From the NCBI GenBank assembly GCA_048938445.1, contig JBHLME010000142.1, positions 1-10,898 of the forward strand: a stretch of 10,898 nt of DNA, written 5' to 3'. Positions 1,049 to 10,870 of the stretch are shown here, piece by piece (within the stretch, counting starts at the first letter, position 1; each line of letters begins with the position of its first letter). The position numbers were made by a program, and so were the translations under genes. The notes under the pieces are model-generated. The model saw nothing but the letters and a program-made list of their open reading frames with translations. It was not told the DNA's origin and did not search any database. This DNA comes from Promethearchaeota archaeon. Lineage in GTDB: Archaea; Asgardarchaeota; Lokiarchaeia; Sigyniarchaeales; SOKP01.

Positions 1049-3265
1049 TTAATAATCTAACTGTTCACCAAGAGCCATTCTAGCTAGATCGCTTAGGAAA
1101 TAAGATTTCATTCCTTTTGCACCAATTTTACGTTCAAGAGTATCCTTACACATTGGACAATTAAAAATACATATCTCCGCGCCATGTTCTACCATATCTT
1201 TAACATTTTTATTTTGAGTTGGTCTTACTAACTTGTTTTTACCTTTTAAAGGAAAGGATGCGGCACAACATAGGGCATTTTCTCGATCATACTCACGCTG
1301 AACTCTTTCTACTCCTATTAATTCACAAATTTTATCCACCCACTCATCAGTTTCAGGTACGTATCTATTCGAGCAATTTCTTTGATATGCAGCTTTTATA
1401 TTTAATTTAGATATTTCCGATTCATGGTCCTTTAAGTAATTATACACATATTCAAAGATATGAACTGGCTTAAATGGTTGCTCAATATTATTTCTTTGGC
1501 AATAGGATGTATATAAACCATAGCATTCATCATGCCAGCATATAACCTCAGTATCCTTTTTAACTCCAGTCTTTTTAAAATTATCTATTATGATTGGAAC
1601 TCTTTCTTTTATGATTGACGGCAATGCTAAGTGCTGATACATCAAATTGCAGAAAAAATCACGTCCACTTAAGTATTGTAAATTATCAAACATTGGCCCC
1701 ATCATTTCTTTTGAATTGCTCTTAAAGAATAAACATTTATTTAAAACGGGTTTAGATGGATCGATGTCTTTAATTCTAATCTCGTCATGCGGTTCATACA
1801 TTTTTATTGAATTTTGTATAACAGCAGGATTACAATCTAAAGTTTTATAACGCTCTTGCAATTCATTTATGAGATCAAATGGATGAGCTCCATATGGACA
1901 ATATTCATCACAACTAAAGCACCCTAAACATTCTGTCAGCACTCGAGAATCTTGATCTTCATTTATTAATTTATTAATTTCTACTCTTGCGGCTTCAGTA
2001 TTCTCAAATTCTATATATTGACAACGTGTTAAACAGTCAATATTTTCACAATTTACACAATTTGATTTGTTAAAAATCATTTTCACCTCTGCTTTTTCAA
2101 TTATTTCATAATCTAATTGATCTAATAATTCTATTAAATCTAATATTTCAAAATTCATGTTAAATTTCTTATTGGCATCGTATAAATTTGTCCTACAAAA
2201 GGGACATGTGGATACTACTATCGAAGCACCCGTCTGTTTCGCTTCATCTAATCGCTCTTTAGAAATTTCTACAGACCAATCAGGATATCCAATTTTTACA
2301 CCTCCTCCCGCACCACAACACCACGCATTTTCTTTATTTCTTTTCATCTCTATAAGAGAAACACCTGGTATCTGTTTCAATATCTCTCTTGGAGGTTCAT
2401 AAAAATTTGAATGTCTTCCAAGATGACATGGATCATGGTATGTAATTATTTTTATAAATTCTGACTTAAATTTAATTCTCTTATCTTTTAAAAATTGATT
2501 AATTATTTCAGTCACGTGGTATATTTCTAAATTATGCTCAACTCCTTTCTTATAAAAATCCTCTTTTAAAGTTCTATAACACCCTGCACAAGAGGTTATG
2601 ACTTTCGAAGCTCCTGCTTTAAATATCTCTTGAATATTATAATTCATAAAATCTTTAACTGGATTTAATTGTCCTGTTCTTAAAAGGGGACTCGTACAGC
2701 AGTGTTCATCAATTAATGTAAAATCAATACTTGACTTTTTCAAAAACGCTATTGTTGCATCTCTTAAATTTTTTTGTCTATAATTTGAAGTGCAACCAAT
2801 AAAGTATACCCATTCAGCTTCATCTGGAAGGTCATATTTCTCCTTTAAATTGTCATTATCAGAATTGACTTCTCCATAGGGATTAAAATAGTTTGGATTC
2901 ATTGTTCTTTTTAGCAAGTTAGAATGATTTTCAGGACAAAACCCATTCAAAACTGCTTCATTTCTTCCCATTTCTATGAAATCAACAAGAAAATGATTGA
3001 ATTTATCGAACCTACAATTTTCCATGCAATTTCCACATGTAGAACAGGAATAAATAACATTAGCAACCCCAGAATTCCATTGAAGCTCACCTTTAATCAA
3101 ACTATAAATTAACCACAATCTTCCTCCAGTGCTGTATGTTTCAAACCTATATTTTTTATAACTAGGACAATTAATTTCAGAAAAATCATAGGTATACTTA
3201 CAATAACCACATCGAAAACATCGATGTATAATATCCTTCCAGTCTGTAATGGAAATTTGTGTCAA
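1049..3265 (-). CDS. (Fe-S)-binding oxidoreductase made of two fused HdrD/GlcF-like units, each with a ferredoxin-like part and two CCG domains, 738 aa
   Basis: Unit 1: CFRCGYC..CP, CSTCGNCMENC, FIGC, EHCC, SCAGC, YHDPCHLGR, WCCGAGGG, TCPFC. Unit 2 from Met396: CVNC..CLTRC, CLGCFSCDEYCP, HDEC, QRNC, LCCAAS, NCPMC. TTG start preceded by GGAGGTGA inside the end of the upstream gene. Confidence 0.92.
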   Translation of the reverse strand: MTQISITDWKDIIHRCFRCGYCKYTYDFSEINCPSYKKYRFETYSTGGRLWLIYSLIKGELQWNSGVANVIYSCSTCGNCMENCRFDKFNHFLVDFIEMGRNEAVLNGFCPENHSNLLKRTMNPNYFNPYGEVNSDNDNLKEKYDLPDEAEWVYFIGCTSNYRQKNLRDATIAFLKKSSIDFTLIDEHCCTSPLLRTGQLNPVKDFMNYNIQEIFKAGASKVITSCAGCYRTLKEDFYKKGVEHNLEIYHVTEIINQFLKDKRIKFKSEFIKIITYHDPCHLGRHSNFYEPPREILKQIPGVSLIEMKRNKENAWCCGAGGGVKIGYPDWSVEISKERLDEAKQTGASIVVSTCPFCRTNLYDANKKFNMNFEILDLIELLDQLDYEIIEKAEVKMIFNKSNCVNCENIDCLTRCQYIEFENTEAARVEINKLINEDQDSRVLTECLGCFSCDEYCPYGAHPFDLINELQERYKTLDCNPAVIQNSIKMYEPHDEIRIKDIDPSKPVLNKCLFFKSNSKEMMGPMFDNLQYLSGRDFFCNLMYQHLALPSIIKERVPIIIDNFKKTGVKKDTEVICWHDECYGLYTSYCQRNNIEQPFKPVHIFEYVYNYLKDHESEISKLNIKAAYQRNCSNRYVPETDEWVDKICELIGVERVQREYDRENALCCAASFPLKGKNKLVRPTQNKNVKDMVEHGAEICIFNCPMCKDTLERKIGAKGMKSYFLSDLARMALGEQLDY
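2083..2089 (-). promoter_or_regulatory. Internal Shine-Dalgarno GAGGTGA before the in-frame ATG at 2080
   Basis: Minus strand GCAGAGGTGAAAATGATT, exactly at the boundary between the two Fe-S units. Confidence 0.6.
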
Positions 3266-3266
3266 T

Positions 3267-4637
3267 TCATGTCACCTCCCAATTTCCAGGATTCATAATA
3301 CCATTTGGATCTAAAGTATCTTTAATTGTTTTCAGGAGAGCTTTATAACTCGGTTTAATTTTTTCTAAGATTAATTTCTGTCCGTCTAATTCTACTTTCC
3401 ATGGTATTCCCCCCAATTCTAAGGCCAATTCATTCGTTTCATGGAGTGCCTTACGAGCATTTTCCATTTCTTTAGGATCTGCTCTGTTGAATGAATAGGA
3501 AAAAAACACGATTACAGTATGAGTTCCACTCATTAGTCTAGAACCAAGTGTTGGAATAATTCCATATTTTTTTGAAATTTCTGCACCTTTTAGATAACAT
3601 TCAGGCACATTTTCTAAGGGCATAAAAGCACCAACGTATTCAAAACCTCCTCCTTTACGATAATCGGCAGCAGCGGCAGCAAAAATGGGTTTCTCCATAT
3701 AAGCATTATGAAATTTTTCAGGTGCTTTCATAAATCTACATTTATTTTTACGATATATTTTTTTTAATATCTTAATCTGTCTCTGGATGTCATCTTCAGA
3801 ATCTCCCGTGATATAAGTCATAAGAAAGATGTAACCTTTCATCCATTCAGGTTTATCTTGCATTCCTATCAGAATATCTTCAGCCATATTAGTCTCTGTA
3901 ATTTTTAATAAAATATTAGGTATGTCGTTAGGATCCTTAAGTAATCCATTTACAATATCGCGAAATTTCGGTTTAGGATAAAGCTTAATTGAAAGTTTTG
4001 TAATAATTCCCATAGTTCCAAATGAACTTGTAAATAATCCAATAAAATCTGGGAGAGGCCCTCTTGAAAACCAATAATCAGAAAGCGCGCATGATCCTAA
4101 ATTACAAATTTCTCCGGTCGGTAAAATAAGTTCTAAACCATTAATCATTGATCCATGATCACCATGACGTTGAGATAGATATCCTGATCCATGAATTAAA
4201 ACATTACCCGCAATTGTAGCAGAAGGGGGTGCATCTGGAATGGGAGGTTCTAATTGAGGATGATTTTCATTTAAATATGACAACAATTGTCCTGTAGTAA
4301 CTCCTGCTTCCATCAACGCATATCGACTCGATTCATTTATTTCAATGATCTTATTCATTCTTTTCATATCGATAATTATACCCCCTTTTACTGGCACGAC
4401 TAATGCACTAAGTGTTAATCCCCCACCCATTGGAATTAAAGGTATCTTATGTTCATTAGCAAATTTAACTATTTGTTGAACTTCGCTTGTTGTTTCTGGA
4501 ATGACCACGAAATCCACTGGTCTTGGTAATGATGCGCCAGGATCCATTGAATATATATGCAAATCTTCTTCTTTATTAGATACAAATTCTTTCCCAACAA
4601 TTTCATTAAGCTTTTTAAAAATTTCATTATCATTCAT
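3267..4637 (-). CDS. FAD-binding oxidoreductase, VAO/PCMH superfamily (GlcD-like architecture), 456 aa
   Basis: PVDFVVIPETTSEVQ, PMGGGLTLS, IDMKRMNKI, EAGV, ATIAGN, GLELILPTG, GTMGIITK and C-terminal LDPNGIMNPG. Coupled to a CCG-domain Fe-S gene as in glcD/glcF-type pairs. Confidence 0.92.
   Translation of the reverse strand: MNDNEIFKKLNEIVGKEFVSNKEEDLHIYSMDPGASLPRPVDFVVIPETTSEVQQIVKFANEHKIPLIPMGGGLTLSALVVPVKGGIIIDMKRMNKIIEINESSRYALMEAGVTTGQLLSYLNENHPQLEPPIPDAPPSATIAGNVLIHGSGYLSQRHGDHGSMINGLELILPTGEICNLGSCALSDYWFSRGPLPDFIGLFTSSFGTMGIITKLSIKLYPKPKFRDIVNGLLKDPNDIPNILLKITETNMAEDILIGMQDKPEWMKGYIFLMTYITGDSEDDIQRQIKILKKIYRKNKCRFMKAPEKFHNAYMEKPIFAAAAADYRKGGGFEYVGAFMPLENVPECYLKGAEISKKYGIIPTLGSRLMSGTHTVIVFFSYSFNRADPKEMENARKALHETNELALELGGIPWKVELDGQKLILEKIKPSYKALLKTIKDTLDPNGIMNPGNWEVT
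3272..3279 (-). promoter_or_regulatory. Shine-Dalgarno GGAGGTGA for the TTG start at 3265
   Basis: Minus strand GGGAGGTGACATGAATTGACA. There is a 1-nt gap between the upstream TGA and the TTG, consistent with translational coupling. Confidence 0.75.
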
Positions 4638-5008: not shown

Positions 5009-5320
5009 ATGAGCTCTGGATCAATATATAAGACATTAGACGTAACAGTTAAAAAAGTTCTTGTCAATCTAAGATCGAATTGGGAAAAAGAGGATACAAT
5101 TAACCATTCAGATAGTAATCTTATTTTTAAGGAAAATTTGTATAATATAATCCAGCTAAATTCTCTCGAACCAAATAAGGAAGAATATTTTAGAATTATA
5201 AGAGAAATTAATTCTTTCTTATCAAATACTAAAAAATTAACCAATCAACAAAAATTGGATTATTGCAAAACTGAAAGATATTTTATGAAGCTATATCTTA
5301 AAGAATTTGATAATAGATAG
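5009..5320 (+). CDS. Hypothetical soluble helical protein, 103 aa
   Basis: ATG to TAG ORF with charged amphipathic composition, filling the space convergent with the Rab-like gene. No family recognised. Confidence 0.65.
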   Translation: MSSGSIYKTLDVTVKKVLVNLRSNWEKEDTINHSDSNLIFKENLYNIIQLNSLEPNKEEYFRIIREINSFLSNTKKLTNQQKLDYCKTERYFMKLYLKEFDNR

Positions 5321-5351
5321 TAAAAAAATGGTTTGATTTTAGAAAAAATTA

Positions 5352-5879
5352 TTAATGCATGACCATTTTTGAATTAACAATTTTTTGGGTCATTTCTGTT
5401 AATGCATCAATAAAGATTTCATCAGAATAGTCTGAAAGTTCTATGAAAATTCCTCCATTCTCTTCAGTATCTCTCTTGATATTAGTTAAATCCAAAGATT
5501 CATCAATTTTTCCCTTATCTACACCTATTAATACATAAGGTATTTTTGTAATTAGTTCTTCATGAATTTCTTTAATTTGATCCTTAACTGCGCGATAACA
5601 CTCAGCATCTGATAAATCGAATGCAATTACAGCTCCCATCGCGCCTCTGTATAATGATTTTCTAAAAAACTTGAACGTTTCCTTCTCACAGATGTCCCAA
5701 AAAGATAAAGTTGCAATCTCTCCATCAAATAATTCAATATTTTTAATAAATACATTGACTCCTAAAGTAATACGATAATTACTCTCGAATGTAATTCCCA
5801 TTAATTCTCCGTAAGTGCTTTTTTTTTCATTAAAACCCCTATAATTAATGAAAATAAGCTTAAACTTGAAAGATTGCAT
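5352..5879 (-). CDS. Rab-like small GTPase-fold protein with degenerate nucleotide-binding motifs (pseudo-GTPase), 175 aa
   Basis: FKFKLIFI, FESNYRITLGVNV, TLSFWD, LYRGAMGAVIAFDLS and IPYVLIG match the Rab scaffold. G1, G3, G4 and G5 are all substituted. SD-like AAGGTTGA precedes the ATG. Confidence 0.85.
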   Translation of the reverse strand: MQSFKFKLIFINYRGFNEKKSTYGELMGITFESNYRITLGVNVFIKNIELFDGEIATLSFWDICEKETFKFFRKSLYRGAMGAVIAFDLSDAECYRAVKDQIKEIHEELITKIPYVLIGVDKGKIDESLDLTNIKRDTEENGGIFIELSDYSDEIFIDALTEMTQKIVNSKMVMH

Positions 5880-5935
5880 TCAACCTTATCTATTTCATTA
5901 AACTTGTCTAATTAATTTATTTATAGTGCTCTTAC

Positions 5936-5943
5936 TATTTAAA
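5936..5943 (-). promoter_or_regulatory. Putative TATA box (TTTAAATA) of the Rab-like gene
   Basis: Canonical archaeal TATA octamer on the minus strand. It would give a leader of roughly 30-35 nt containing the 5884-5899 motif. An alternative TTATATAA lies at 5958-5965. Confidence 0.35.
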
Positions 5944-6086
5944 CTATATACTCATTTTTATATAACGAAATAAAAATTTTCAAAAAACATTTTCAATATA
6001 TTTTATATTATTTGTCAAAACTCCCAATCAATTATATAAATATTTTTGAAATTTATATACATCAATGATACAACCATTTTTCTGTA

Positions 6087-6535: not shown

Positions 6536-7249
6536 TTATCTAAATTTCACTAAGAGAAAAATACCTGTTTCAATAAACCAAATTAACAACGCAATAACTG
6601 CAATCCACTCCCAAATCCGAAAATTGTAGGTAGTTGGACTTGTATCAGTGATCATAAATACAAAATCAAAATTACTTGATATAAGGAGCGGGATACCTTG
6701 TACGAGAAAGATTATAAACACTAATCCCGCACTCAAACCTATAAATGGTTGAAATTTTGGAATATCCTTGTTGAGTAGCATTATAAAACTAAAGTTTCCA
6801 ATCATTAAACCAACATTAATGAAAAATATGGTTGCAGATATCGCATGATACAATGGATAATCAGCCATATTAAAAACAGTAAGGAAAAAGCCTCCTAATA
6901 ATGCGAATAATCCATTAGTTAAAGGAAGAAGTAACCAATTTTTCTGTTTTTTATTTCCAGGTAGCATTTTTCTAATTAAATCTATTATAAGAGGAATCGA
7001 GCATAATAACGTTGAAAACATTCCCATCATGAAAATAATTTGAGAACCATTTCTTGCAGCTCCAATACTCGAAATCCAAATAGATCCAATGGTCACTGGT
7101 GCTTCAGTAAAATGATATAACATTGTTCCTACTGATAACATGTAAATTAATAATATTCCTCCTAATATCCCAAAATATCCCCCTTTATATTTTTTTAAAG
7201 GTTTATCTAATCTTTTTGTATTAATTAAATCTATCATTAGATCTAACAT
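6536..7249 (-). CDS. Six-TM membrane protein, Frag1/DRAM/Sfk1-like or DUF998-like
   Basis: Six hydrophobic helices with WISSIG after TM1, YHAISATIFF at TM4 and IWEW at TM6, matching the ISxxG / H-x3-A-x2-FF / EW signature. The start is likely ATG 7249 (AAGGTG upstream). The longer 7357 extension is low-complexity, promoter-like AT sequence. Confidence 0.75.
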   Translation of the reverse strand: MLDLMIDLINTKRLDKPLKKYKGGYFGILGGILLIYMLSVGTMLYHFTEAPVTIGSIWISSIGAARNGSQIIFMMGMFSTLLCSIPLIIDLIRKMLPGNKKQKNWLLLPLTNGLFALLGGFFLTVFNMADYPLYHAISATIFFINVGLMIGNFSFIMLLNKDIPKFQPFIGLSAGLVFIIFLVQGIPLLISSNFDFVFMITDTSPTTYNFRIWEWIAVIALLIWFIETGIFLLVKFR

Positions 7250-8350: not shown

Positions 8351-10870
8351 ATGTCTGAAAATGCTTCCAATTCAAAAAAATCGCGTAGTCAAAAAACCTC
8401 AGAAGAAGATGTTAGTCTAAAGGAAATAACCATTCCTGAATATAGACAAACGAGGGTTGATACTCTCAAGACCAAGATGAGTAGTAGAATTTCAAATCAG
8501 AAAAGAGTTTTGAGATTATACAGATCAAAAATAAATCAAAAAGTTAAATCGACATTAAATAAAATTAAGGATGTAATTTTTCCAAGGGATGTAGTATATA
8601 AAGATCAAGAACCTCCTAAATCTTTTGCTTTTAAGAAAGAATTTATTGGAATTTATGCATTTTTCATAATATATTCTTTAATATTGATATTTTATATTAA
8701 TATCCCTGATGAAACCTTTATCAGTATTTTTACCCTTGGGCGTCCTTATGAGTTTGGAACAACAATTCTTGCGTTTTTTCTTTTTTTGACATTTCTCCTT
8801 AGTATTAATAAAATCCGCTATTGGATCTTTGATAATGATAAATTGATTATTACCTACTTGAAACAAATAATAATATTTCCAATAGTATTTGTTATTTTGT
8901 TCATAATACTATCAACTTACATCCTTCCAGTATATAATATTACATCAATAATCCTCTTTTTATCAATGTTATGGCTTTTTCTTCTAAGTAGTAGATTTTA
9001 TTCGTATTCTCGTAGATTTTCAACTAATATTGAAGCTAAATTTATCACAAAATATTCAAAGTCTCGTTCTCTTGTTGCTTCATTAGGACCTATCTTTATA
9101 ATGGGATCTCTTGTCATGATTTCTTTATTTTATAGGACTTTTTTAGTTGTACTTGCTTTAGATATATTTAGTGTAACTGATCCTTTTGTTGCAATACAAG
9201 TATATTTCATTGAAATGCGGTTGATAATGCCTTTAATATATTTAAGTTTGATATTAACCTTCTTATTTATTATTTTTGAATTTATTTTTACTAGAAGAGT
9301 GGCGGAAACAAAAAGAGCAGGCAAATTCGATAATTTTACATTCTCCATGATTGTCTTTTTTATATTTTTTTTCCAATTAATGCAAGTGTCTCTATTTCTC
9401 TTTACACGTCCAGAAACTGTAGAAATCTTGAAGAAAGCATTTGGAACAACAACAGGAAGCACCATTTCTGCTTTTTTTTTGGTTGAATTCGTTATCACAA
9501 TGATCTTTCTTTTTAGAATATTGGTTAAAACCGGTAGAACTTTTGGATGGCGATTGTTATGGTTTAAAAAAGATGGTGTAGTCTTGTTAATTTTAACATG
9601 TGTATTTGCTCAAACTATTACTCAATATGCACGTTTATCACCAATAGAAAACTTTGATGTCAGGTTATTAGGATTGATAATAGATTTCAGCAAGTTTTTA
9701 ATCTCTATATTAATGATTATATTTTTGGGTTTTACTTTGGTTGTTTATTATCTTAAACCTCACGAGACTTCCGTGTTCATGAGAATGATGAAAGAGACGG
9801 TAAAAGAAGAAGAAAAAGAATCCGAACAAATTTATGGAATAATTAGAAACGAATATATTCGGAGAGGAGATGCCTTTAGCTTAGAGTCTATTGAAAGAGA
9901 AATGATAAAATCTACTAGATTACCAAAAGAAACTATTTATGAAATTATAGATCATTTAGGCGATAAACATTTTAATATTCATATCACCAAAAAAACTGAT
10001 GATACTGGGAAAATTGTCTCCCGAATTATTGATTTCGTTTCTATAACTGAAGTTTTTGAAAGAAAGGATCTAGCAAAAAAGAAGGCAAAAAAATACCTTT
10101 CAGAAAGATTATTTGATACCATGATAACAGAAAAGAAGCATATTAAATTAAGTGATGAAATTGATACTGAAAAAGCATCTGATTTATTCATATCATCTCT
10201 TTCTGCAGACTATAGCAAAAAAGTTAAGGAGAAAAAACAAGTTTCAATAAAGAAGAATAAAGCCCAACGGTTTCTCACGGCAAAACGCGATATATCAGAG
10301 GATATTAAACAAGAGATCATGGAAATTTTAAAAAAAGAATATCTATATCGTATTGAAAATAAAAAATTATTTCAAGACATTCATTATTCAATATCCGAGA
10401 TATCACCGGAAATACAGAAGAAGACAAAAATTACTATTGGGGAAATATATCCTCTTATAGAAGAATTATCAAAATTAGATAATGAAATTCGATTGATTGC
10501 AAATCCAGAGGATCAAAATGATAAGAAAATACAATTCTTTCCAATTTCCGATGATGCGATGTGTTTTGCTCTTACTAATTTTAGACCAGATGAGTATAAA
10601 GAAATCAGAGAGGAGATAAGGCAGAAATATATTCAAGATATAAAAGCAAGAAGAACATTAGCAATGCTAAAGAGCTTCAAAGAAGGAATCACAGAATCAA
10701 CTGACCAACAAAAGAATTGGCTTCAAATTTTAGATTATTTAATAAAAAATTATAATACATATAAAAATAATTATGTTAGTCTCCCAAGTAAATCAAAGCT
10801 TAATGATTTAATTTCAACTTTTCCACTAAATAAAAAAATAGATGTTTTTAATTTAGAAATAAAAAAATAA
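8351..10870 (+). CDS. Large polytopic membrane protein (~10 TM) with basic N-terminus and a C-terminal soluble region holding two winged-helix-like repeats, 839 aa
   Basis: About ten hydrophobic helices over aa ~98-468, then an internal repeat at aa ~492-565 and ~654-732. Confidence 0.85.
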   Translation: MSENASNSKKSRSQKTSEEDVSLKEITIPEYRQTRVDTLKTKMSSRISNQKRVLRLYRSKINQKVKSTLNKIKDVIFPRDVVYKDQEPPKSFAFKKEFIGIYAFFIIYSLILIFYINIPDETFISIFTLGRPYEFGTTILAFFLFLTFLLSINKIRYWIFDNDKLIITYLKQIIIFPIVFVILFIILSTYILPVYNITSIILFLSMLWLFLLSSRFYSYSRRFSTNIEAKFITKYSKSRSLVASLGPIFIMGSLVMISLFYRTFLVVLALDIFSVTDPFVAIQVYFIEMRLIMPLIYLSLILTFLFIIFEFIFTRRVAETKRAGKFDNFTFSMIVFFIFFFQLMQVSLFLFTRPETVEILKKAFGTTTGSTISAFFLVEFVITMIFLFRILVKTGRTFGWRLLWFKKDGVVLLILTCVFAQTITQYARLSPIENFDVRLLGLIIDFSKFLISILMIIFLGFTLVVYYLKPHETSVFMRMMKETVKEEEKESEQIYGIIRNEYIRRGDAFSLESIEREMIKSTRLPKETIYEIIDHLGDKHFNIHITKKTDDTGKIVSRIIDFVSITEVFERKDLAKKKAKKYLSERLFDTMITEKKHIKLSDEIDTEKASDLFISSLSADYSKKVKEKKQVSIKKNKAQRFLTAKRDISEDIKQEIMEILKKEYLYRIENKKLFQDIHYSISEISPEIQKKTKITIGEIYPLIEELSKLDNEIRLIANPEDQNDKKIQFFPISDDAMCFALTNFRPDEYKEIREEIRQKYIQDIKARRTLAMLKSFKEGITESTDQQKNWLQILDYLIKNYNTYKNNYVSLPSKSKLNDLISTFPLNKKIDVFNLEIKK

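Follow-up and report, generated by a model that had tools for sequence, protein, structure and literature searches.

A Rab-like gene product of an Asgard archaeon is probably a pseudo-GTPase descended from a canonical GTPase of the same genome

No other prokaryotes are known to carry as many Ras-superfamily GTPases as Asgard archaea, in which the functions of these proteins are largely unknown. Eukaryotic pseudo-GTPases are recognized as scaffolds and assembly factors, and the pG1 and pG2 domains of p190RhoGAP as well as CENP-M are eukaryotic pseudo-GTPases of class i. The N-terminal domain of AAGAB, also of class i, has altered or missing G motifs, serves as a module for protein-protein interactions and binds through the face opposite the nucleotide pocket (PMC12490416). 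Parts of Tran et al. 2024 (PMC10933270) and of Surkont and Pereira-Leal 2016 (PMC4915359) describe Asgard and other archaeal small GTPases as nucleotide-binding proteins of the Rab-, Rag-, Arf- and MglA-like types. The words “pseudo” and “degenerate” are absent from the former paper, as are “degenerate” and “pseudogene” from the latter. Our literature search returned no account of an Asgard or other archaeal pseudo-GTPase, although supplements, such as a tree of 74 MK-D1 GTPases, might list degenerate members. Here, we describe a candidate encoded in a 10,898-nucleotide stretch of a Promethearchaeota archaeon genome (contig JBHLME010000142.1 of assembly GCA_048938445.1), which we refer to as the window; the genome itself is labeled G000. 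The gene lies at 5352..5879 on the minus strand, as do all of the motif positions given below. Its product is probably a pseudo-GTPase of the class-i type, that is, a non-switching interaction module with a GTPase fold that would neither bind nor hydrolyze guanine nucleotides.

The gene is a single open reading frame (ORF) of 175 amino acids plus a stop codon, with an ATG start. The ORF itself, Pfam, the alignment to Rab1, AlphaFold2, Foldseek and the orthologs together identify it as a gene for a protein of the Ras/Rab fold. The product matches the Pfam Ras family (PF00071) with an E value of 1.1e-15; its score of 58 bits exceeds the cut-off of 21.6, and the Roc profile also matches, at 35 bits. 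The PF00071 match spans only residues 30-167 and thus starts past the P-loop. The closest solved chains are Rab1/Ypt1, with 2wwx_A at an E value of 4.4e-14 (HMMER; 580 distinct sequences at E ≤ 10). An AlphaFold2 model built on an alignment of 63 rows shows the complete G-domain topology, with a mean predicted local distance difference test score (pLDDT) of 87.5 and a predicted template modeling score of 0.85. Its strands cover residues 3-13, 42-49, 55-62, 82-88, 115-121 and 143-149, and its helices cover residues 22-26, 67-77, 92-108, 131-140 and 153-174. Foldseek comparison with the PDB returned Rabs across the listed ranks, with probability 1.00, and one KRAS entry; the best hits, all Rabs, have template modeling (TM) scores of 0.67-0.77, and Rab1b scored 0.73-0.77 at 28% identity. 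With a six-stranded sheet and five helices, our definition of the G-domain fold, and a significant profile match, the protein belongs to the Ras superfamily by fold. It ranks 54th among the 94 Pfam Ras matches of its own genome at 57.5 bits, the first 51 scoring 91-184 bits, and the total of 94 bears out the Ras-superfamily expansion that an earlier reading of the window (the sequence-only reading) had cited for Asgard archaea. The C terminus (...KIVNSKMVMH) is without cysteine. The same reading had correctly noted the missing prenylation cysteines, but these carry no special meaning, since archaeal Rab-like proteins generally lack them according to parts of two studies (PMC4915359, PMC10933270).

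To locate the guanine-nucleotide motifs, we used the HMMER alignment with Rab1 as well as alignments to a canonical paralog in the same genome, which we refer to as the parent. The G1 P-loop is GDSGVGKS in Rab1 and GAAAVGKT in the parent, compared with NYRGFNEKKST in the pseudo-GTPase (residues 12-22, 5814..5846), where the motif is one residue longer. At G3, DTAGQ in Rab1 and DIGGQ in the parent correspond to DICEK (residues 62-66, 5682..5696), in which the Asp is retained, the Gly has become Glu and the catalytic Gln has become Lys. The G4 motif, NKCD in Rab1 and NKAD in the parent, is VDKG (residues 120-123, 5511..5522), and the SAK of G5 in both proteins aligns with SDY, within the remnant LSDY (residues 148-151, 5427..5438). 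The sequence thus does not present the set expected of a functional GTPase, namely, G1, a G2 Thr with a G3 DxxG(Q), and a G4 [NT]KxD with a G5 SAK.

The loss is shared by a clade of eight sequences, the window protein included, that we refer to as the pseudo-clade. The P-loop stretches of the orthologs read YGDYNENNRS, HRGFDSTKRS, QRGFDGNTHS, QRGFVGNKHT and IQGFDDVENS, and none of them keeps the phosphate-binding Lys, in whose place stands N, T, E, R or H. Their G4 stretches are NKGK, KKGK, NRGK, DNNE and ENES, and the guanine-specifying Asp is missing from all eight sequences. Across the pseudo-clade, G3 reads DICEK, DISEK or DVCSK, so that Gly and Gln are gone; in a six-sequence alignment, E65 and K66 are invariant. 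Thr38 of the window protein aligns with the G2 Thr and is Asn in all seven other members, which indicates that the G2 Thr is an accident of a single sequence. The sequence-only reading was therefore right about the intact 175-residue ORF and its position, the Ras/Rab fold and the loss of G1, G3, G4 and G5. It placed the G5 remnant one residue off, at LSD, and its claim that the G2 Thr persists does not survive the comparison with the relatives. The RabF-like segments that it had listed do align where it put them: LGVNV, TLSFW, TFKFFR, LYRGA and IAFDLS face IGVDF, KLQIW, RFRTIT, YYRGA and VVYDVT of Rab1, with about 10 of 27 positions identical in a hand count that uses the motif definitions of that reading.

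The motif loss also stands out within the genome. A profile search over all ORFs recovered 66 full-length G domains, 61 with GxxxxGK[ST] and 62 with GK[ST]. Only four domains, in three proteins, lack GK[ST], the pseudo-GTPase among them, and it is the sole domain to fail the G1, DxxG and G4 patterns alike. For this census we rely on the G1 count alone, as one subfamily has SKxD as its G4. Members of that subfamily (e.g., C8:34784-35326, C129, C244 and C136) read DF[AG]GE at the DxxGQ position and SKxD at the NKxD position, and their P-loops are canonical.

We compared regional conservation as mean pairwise identity between the eight pseudo-clade sequences and five canonical sequences of the same genus. 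The P-loop (residues 13-22), helix a1, the G4 loop and the G5 loop are each at 1.00 in the canonical set, compared with 0.33, 0.48, 0.51 and 0.36, respectively, in the pseudo-clade, where only helix a4 (0.29) falls below the P-loop. By these alignments, the former nucleotide-contacting loops are invariant in the canonical clade and among the most variable parts of the pseudo-clade. Elsewhere, identity in the pseudo-clade is 0.89 in strand b1 (residues 3-12; canonical, 1.00), 0.74 in switch I (0.94), 0.78 in strand b2 (1.00), 0.76 in strand b3 (1.00) and 0.75 in G3 plus switch II (1.00). Switch I, the b2-b3 interswitch, the G3 remnant and switch II together make up a conserved core at residues 31-82 (5634..5789), with identities of 0.74-0.78 except in the b2-b3 turn (0.56). 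A GTPase fold with G-motif residues missing is the mark of class i as defined in PMC12490416, and the sequence of the window protein appears to place it there. We infer the loss of nucleotide binding from the motif loss combined with the low conservation of the former binding loops. The structural models are weakly consistent with a disturbed pocket: with identical alignment rows, the parent has pLDDT values of 95, 81 and 67 at residues 11-20, 21-30 and 31-40 and a helix a1 at residues 18-26, compared with 82, 63 and 54 and a helix a1 at only residues 22-26 in the pseudo-GTPase, that is, five residues rather than nine. In contrast to AAGAB, which uses the opposite face, the conserved face here is the switch/interswitch side.

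The parent is encoded at G000:C5:7507-8031, and its sequence reads MSSFKLKVLLTGAAAVGKT..., with DIGGQ, NKAD and SAK. The two proteins are 35% identical and share their length and fold, an N-terminal M.SFK.K strand, the interswitch and the C-terminal helix, and neither has C-terminal cysteines. Unlike the pseudo-GTPase, which has none of these features, the parent possesses GAAAVGKT, the G2 Thr, DIGGQ, NKAD, SAK and a match to the NCBIfam small_GTP family (TIGR00231; 87.3 bits); no NCBIfam family matches the pseudo-GTPase at E ≤ 0.01. Among solved structures, the closest match by sequence (E 4e-14) and by fold (TM 0.73-0.77) is Rab1/Ypt1, with which the segments at RabF positions align, but identity is about 28% and the window protein lacks every guanine-nucleotide motif. 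The parent is 91-99% identical among the six genomes of the genus, with the copy in G004 truncated by a contig end, whereas pseudo-GTPase copies over the same genomes are only 36-78% identical to one another. Between G000 and G002, the nonsynonymous divergence (dN) is 0.287 for the pseudo-GTPase and 0.015 for the parent, an approximately 19-fold difference.

A maximum likelihood (ML) phylogeny of 46 sequences was constructed with IQ-TREE under LG+C20 PMSF, with a bootstrap that had not fully settled. We selected the input ourselves: eight sequences of the pseudo-clade, seven further degenerate ones, 15 canonical ones and 16 additional paralogs of the same genome, the remaining paralogs being omitted. 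The eight pseudo-clade sequences are monophyletic (support 100/99), and the metagenomic protein P0009 is their sister (100/98). Together they are nested in a canonical GTPase clade (100/99) with paralog C150 outside, and a quick tree agrees. This placement indicates that the pseudo-GTPase descends from a canonical Rab-like GTPase. Like the eukaryotic class-i pseudo-GTPases, it has the fold of a G domain in which G-motif residues are altered or missing, but it is a stand-alone protein of 175 amino acids with no detectable specific sequence relationship to them. On this sequence evidence, it arose independently of them, from a Rab-like GTPase of archaea.

The same family has other degenerate offshoots. 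A profile search of 1.84 billion representatives recovered 6 proteins at E ≤ 1e-30, 342 at 1e-10 and 10,327 at 0.001. Three of the six (P0003, P0007 and P0009) fall in or beside the pseudo-clade, and the other three (P0008, P0010 and P0011) are multi-domain proteins with canonical motifs. The further offshoots are P0012, P0013, P0017, G015:C68 (L036) and domain 2 of a 542-amino-acid protein, G000:C85:928-2553. Together with P0009, they group with the canonical C5-type clade and show partial or full motif loss in varied architectures. Support for uniting them is weak (bootstrap of 46-83 in the ML tree) and compatible with one loss event or with several. They differ from the pseudo-GTPase of the window in that L036 keeps DIGGQ and GALGVGKK and P0017 keeps GPPDSEKS, and in their fusions to zinc-ribbon or to leucine-rich and TPR repeats or their tandem domains. 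As read from their sequences, P0012 joins a degenerate G domain to an N-terminal Cys-rich ribbon, and P0013 joins one to leucine-rich and TPR-like repeats. G000:C30:5180-5965 (plus strand) has a degenerate G domain with a C-terminal Cys-rich ribbon and the P-loop GGESSLEKNS. The 542-amino-acid protein (plus strand; L062) carries two G-like domains, both devoid of GK[ST] and NKxD, on either side of a helical middle part; its domain 2 groups with the canonical parent family, and its domain 1 sits on a very long branch, so that its placement is unsure.

We rejected a segmental duplication of the parent's surroundings, as neither of the window neighbors described below, p103 and a membrane-protein gene, has a match near the parent. 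The parent's own neighbors, an MIT/TPR protein and an amino-acid kinase, are not duplicated beside the pseudo-GTPase. MIT domains bind ESCRT-III in eukaryotes; the MIT/TPR gene, G000:C5:3648-7199 (minus strand; L055), is divergently oriented to the parent, and its product of 1183 amino acids carries TPR repeats besides the MIT domain (48 bits). In another genome, the canonical GTPase at G009:C116:11641-12765 (L044) has a tandem copy that is also canonical (GAGAVGKT, DVGGQ, NKLD), indicating that duplication of the parent gene recurs.

We propose that a canonical, strongly conserved Rab-like GTPase gene duplicated and that the duplicate would have lost G1-G5 and evolved fast, yet been retained. 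Unable to cycle, it would be a permanently one-state protein-binding module, and its binding surface may be the conserved face formed by switch I, the b2-b3 interswitch and switch II. Candidate partners are the products of the two adjacent genes, p103 (5009..5320, plus strand) and a Frag1/DRAM/Sfk1-like membrane-protein gene (6536..7249, minus strand), the latter of which could put the pseudo-GTPase at the membrane.

An unlikely, though by no means far-fetched, alternative is that the protein has kept the parental face and acts as a decoy or competitor, titrating the parent's guanine nucleotide exchange factor, GTPase-activating protein, longin/roadblock regulators or effectors independently of nucleotide. 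Its descent from the parent and the presence of both copies in the four genomes examined (G000, G002, G003 and G005) suit such a role. Strand b3 is still 0.72 identical between the pseudo-clade and the parent, and F69, F71, R73, Y77, G79 and A80 of switch II match the parent. However, identity to the parent falls to 0.36 in switch II, 0.30 in strand b2 and 0.44 in switch I, compared with 0.74-0.78 inside the pseudo-clade. A switch face that diverges from the parent and is fixed in the clade fits a new, separate specificity better than a decoy. The retained effector face claimed by the sequence-only reading therefore stands within the clade but fails for switch II when measured against the parent, and the face looks re-tuned and then frozen rather than merely retained. 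The locus also counts against the decoy role, as Pfam matches among the 10 scanned window ORFs include no longin or roadblock gene, and the MIT/TPR and kinase neighbors of the parent have no counterpart here.

Residual ligand binding, either of nucleotide without hydrolysis or of ATP or another ligand through non-canonical motifs, is very unlikely. The modeled fold is intact, Asp62 and the preceding Trp61 are invariant, the window copy has Lys-Lys-Ser-Thr at the former GK[ST] site, and some orthologs keep the N-K of NKxD (as NKGK). Against this, the P-loop is among the least conserved regions and its Lys is variously replaced, the G4 Asp is absent from all eight sequences, G5 is variable, and the G2 Thr gives way to Asn in the seven relatives. 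One would expect a ligand site to be conserved, and this one is among the most variable parts of the protein, which disfavors residual nucleotide binding.

Retention of the gene was assessed in 40 related genomes, comprising 5 others of the same genus and 35 further relatives. Orthologs with open frames are present in four of the five congeneric genomes, at 60% (G002), 58% (G004), 46% (G003) and 44% (G005) identity; the fifth, G001, has no ortholog-level match and is 74% complete. The 35 further relatives yielded no ortholog-level match: their best hits are at most 37% identical, and the inspected ones are canonical or other paralogs. A large protein database holds five relatives of 169-176 amino acids at 58-73% identity, along with the window product itself, called there as 149 amino acids from Met27 (P0001). 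Besides the full-length frames in five genomes, the metagenome proteins P0002, P0003 and P0005 are intact. Residues 3-12 are the best conserved of all (0.89) and Met27 is replaced by Ile, Leu or Phe in the orthologs, indicating that the 175-amino-acid form is the real product.

The ratio of dN to synonymous divergence (dS), estimated by the NG86 method, is 0.13-0.16 among G000, G002 and G004 and 0.24-0.34 in the four of six comparisons with G003 and G005 that yield values; dS among pseudo-clade pairs is 1.6-2.6 or not computable, so these ratios are rough, yet dN is clearly far below dS. Neutral decay, for which the sequence-only reading had proposed dN/dS across orthologs as a check, is not seen in the seven of ten pairs with values (0.13-0.34). 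A search for closer loci turned up the G002 and G004 contigs together with a single metagenome contig of 2.9 kb (60% identity), but no locus close enough for an unsaturated dS. In sediment metagenome runs of a second study, some contig pieces match the window exactly across the ORF, and one variant contig is about 90% identical to it over 5593-5795. Its 15 listed differences affect 14 codons, of which 10 are changed silently and 4 carry replacements (F51Y, C64S, T68I and V84L); S64, I68 and L84 are states found in orthologs. As a single low-depth contig, this variant is supporting evidence only. Taken together, the sequences indicate that the gene is maintained under purifying selection and is not decaying. 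That it is a decaying pseudogene, or that the Met27 form is the true product, is scarcely credible: the P0001 entry and the 19-fold excess of dN over the parent speak for it, but they are outweighed by the open full-length frames in five genomes and three metagenome proteins, the low dN/dS and mostly silent variant codons, the conservation of residues 3-12 rather than Met27, and a conserved TATA-like element upstream.

Several observations weigh against the non-switching module as we have drawn it. The dS values are saturated, three of ten pairs have no NG86 value and YN00 failed in nine of ten, while the variant evidence comes from one contig at a depth of about 3 over some 200 bases. Orthologs are confined to one genus (four of five other genomes, and 0 of 35 further relatives with the pseudo-GTPase as query), so the family is either young or evolving too fast to trace. 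Canonical GTPases predominate in the AlphaFold2 alignment and thereby pull the model toward the canonical fold. The invariance of Trp61 and Asp62 and the KKST of the window copy also count here, and this copy could conceivably make a weak or unusual nucleotide contact. As for the candidate partners, three further p103 loci in the own genome have no GTPase-like gene within 4 kb, and the neighbors do not share one operon, p103 being convergent and the membrane gene lying 195-656 bp upstream.

The neighbor p103 is recognized by synteny as a conserved convergent gene of 103 amino acids, with an MSSG N terminus and a ...QKLDYC..ERYFMKLYL C terminus. It adjoins the pseudo-GTPase ortholog in all four loci (G002, G003, G004 and G005). 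The copy in G004 (L052 5424-5730) is broken by stops and frameshifts at poly-A runs, which may reflect faulty assembly or a genuine loss. For p103, Pfam and NCBIfam gave no family, the ESM Atlas gave no usable feature match and only structure matches below the threshold, and the model of p103 itself is poor (pLDDT 0.52). The C-terminal half of the protein is part of a multi-copy family present in 20 of 24 genomes of the window's taxonomic family and in 0 of 16 genomes of the other three families. We rejected a general p103-GTPase link because the three other p103 paralogs of the genome lie apart from GTPase-like ORFs, as noted above. A complex prediction for the pseudo-GTPase and p103 scored 0.01 against a mark of 0.32, which, with the p103 fold uncertain and no controls, is no evidence either way.

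The upstream neighbor encodes a multi-pass membrane protein, provisionally assigned to the Frag1/DRAM/Sfk1 type by synteny and by the PF10277 matches of its orthologs. Its ORF reaches 7357, and similarity to the orthologs begins near Met37. The gene is adjacent in both loci whose contigs extend that far (G002 and G005); those of G003 and G004 stop short, and G003 carries an ortholog on another contig. The G005 ortholog scores 43.1 bits on PF10277 (cut-off, 30.3) and the G002 ortholog 17.5 bits (E 0.003), while the window protein has no direct match at E ≤ 10. A paralog, G000:C233, links PF10277 (37.7 bits) to the window neighbor's own profile (57.8 bits); it is one of several membrane-protein paralogs in the genome. 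The Frag1/DRAM/Sfk1 family is mainly eukaryotic, and PF10277 has no match in 14 control prokaryote genomes. In G005 the trio is adjacent but has other outer flanks, JAB/MPN proteins among them, indicating that the three genes stay together while their surroundings change. All three evolve fast, and among the genomes searched, high-scoring matches over their full length occur in this genus only. This conserved adjacency is circumstantial and the only concrete lead to partners.

The locus offers a clear natural example of a pseudo-GTPase with its canonical parent living in the same genome, which makes it evolutionarily informative, and the conserved switch II block could readily be used as bait to find the first partners of any small GTPases of Asgard archaea. 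Its reach is limited: the finding concerns one genus, and the role is a predicted one. We also entertain a broader and quite unlikely scenario in which one exceptionally conserved Rab-like GTPase of this Asgard family has repeatedly spawned nucleotide-free pseudo-GTPases, some stand-alone, some in tandem and some fused to zinc-ribbon or leucine-rich and TPR repeats, that of the window being a constitutive adaptor that docks through its switch face onto the membrane protein, p103 or both. If true, it would provide a prokaryotic precedent for membrane pseudo-GTPase scaffolds and would mean that dead-switch regulators evolve in archaeal relatives of eukaryotes.

Alignment of the upstream regions reveals a conserved TATA-box-like ATAGTTTAAATAG element at 5935..5947 (minus strand), 56 nucleotides 5' of the ATG. 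Within it, ATA.TTTAAATA is invariant in all five orthologous upstream regions, amid otherwise divergent AT-rich DNA. It is likely the gene's own TATA box, a reading that leans on the archaeal TATA consensus. The convergent stop codons of the pseudo-GTPase gene and p103 are separated by a 31-bp spacer (5321..5351) with oligo-T tracts on both strands. Archaeal transcription terminates at oligo-T, and we infer that these tracts would terminate both convergent transcripts. Neither Rfam (at the gathering threshold) nor ARAGORN returned anything over the window. Nothing supports control by an adjacent antisense RNA, as the sequence-only reading had suggested: Rfam has no match, and the region instead shows a convergent protein-coding gene at a distance of 31 bp, an oligo-T spacer and the gene's own TATA-like element. 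Of 11 sequencing data sets listed as containing the sequence, none is recorded as RNA.

Elsewhere in the window, the 138-, 839- and 145-amino-acid proteins have no Pfam or NCBIfam family, and neither does the window copy of the membrane protein. At 1049-4637 (minus strand), a FAD-linked oxidase (FAD_binding_4 and FAD-oxidase_C; 456 amino acids) lies beside a 738-amino-acid CCG/4Fe-4S dicluster fusion. The pair resembles a lactate/glycolate-type dehydrogenase with its Fe-S partner and is 76-80% identical in G002 and G004. The 839-amino-acid protein, encoded at 8351-10870 (plus strand), is hydrophobic and multi-pass over its long N-terminal half, and its C-terminal half is charged and rich in Lys and Glu.

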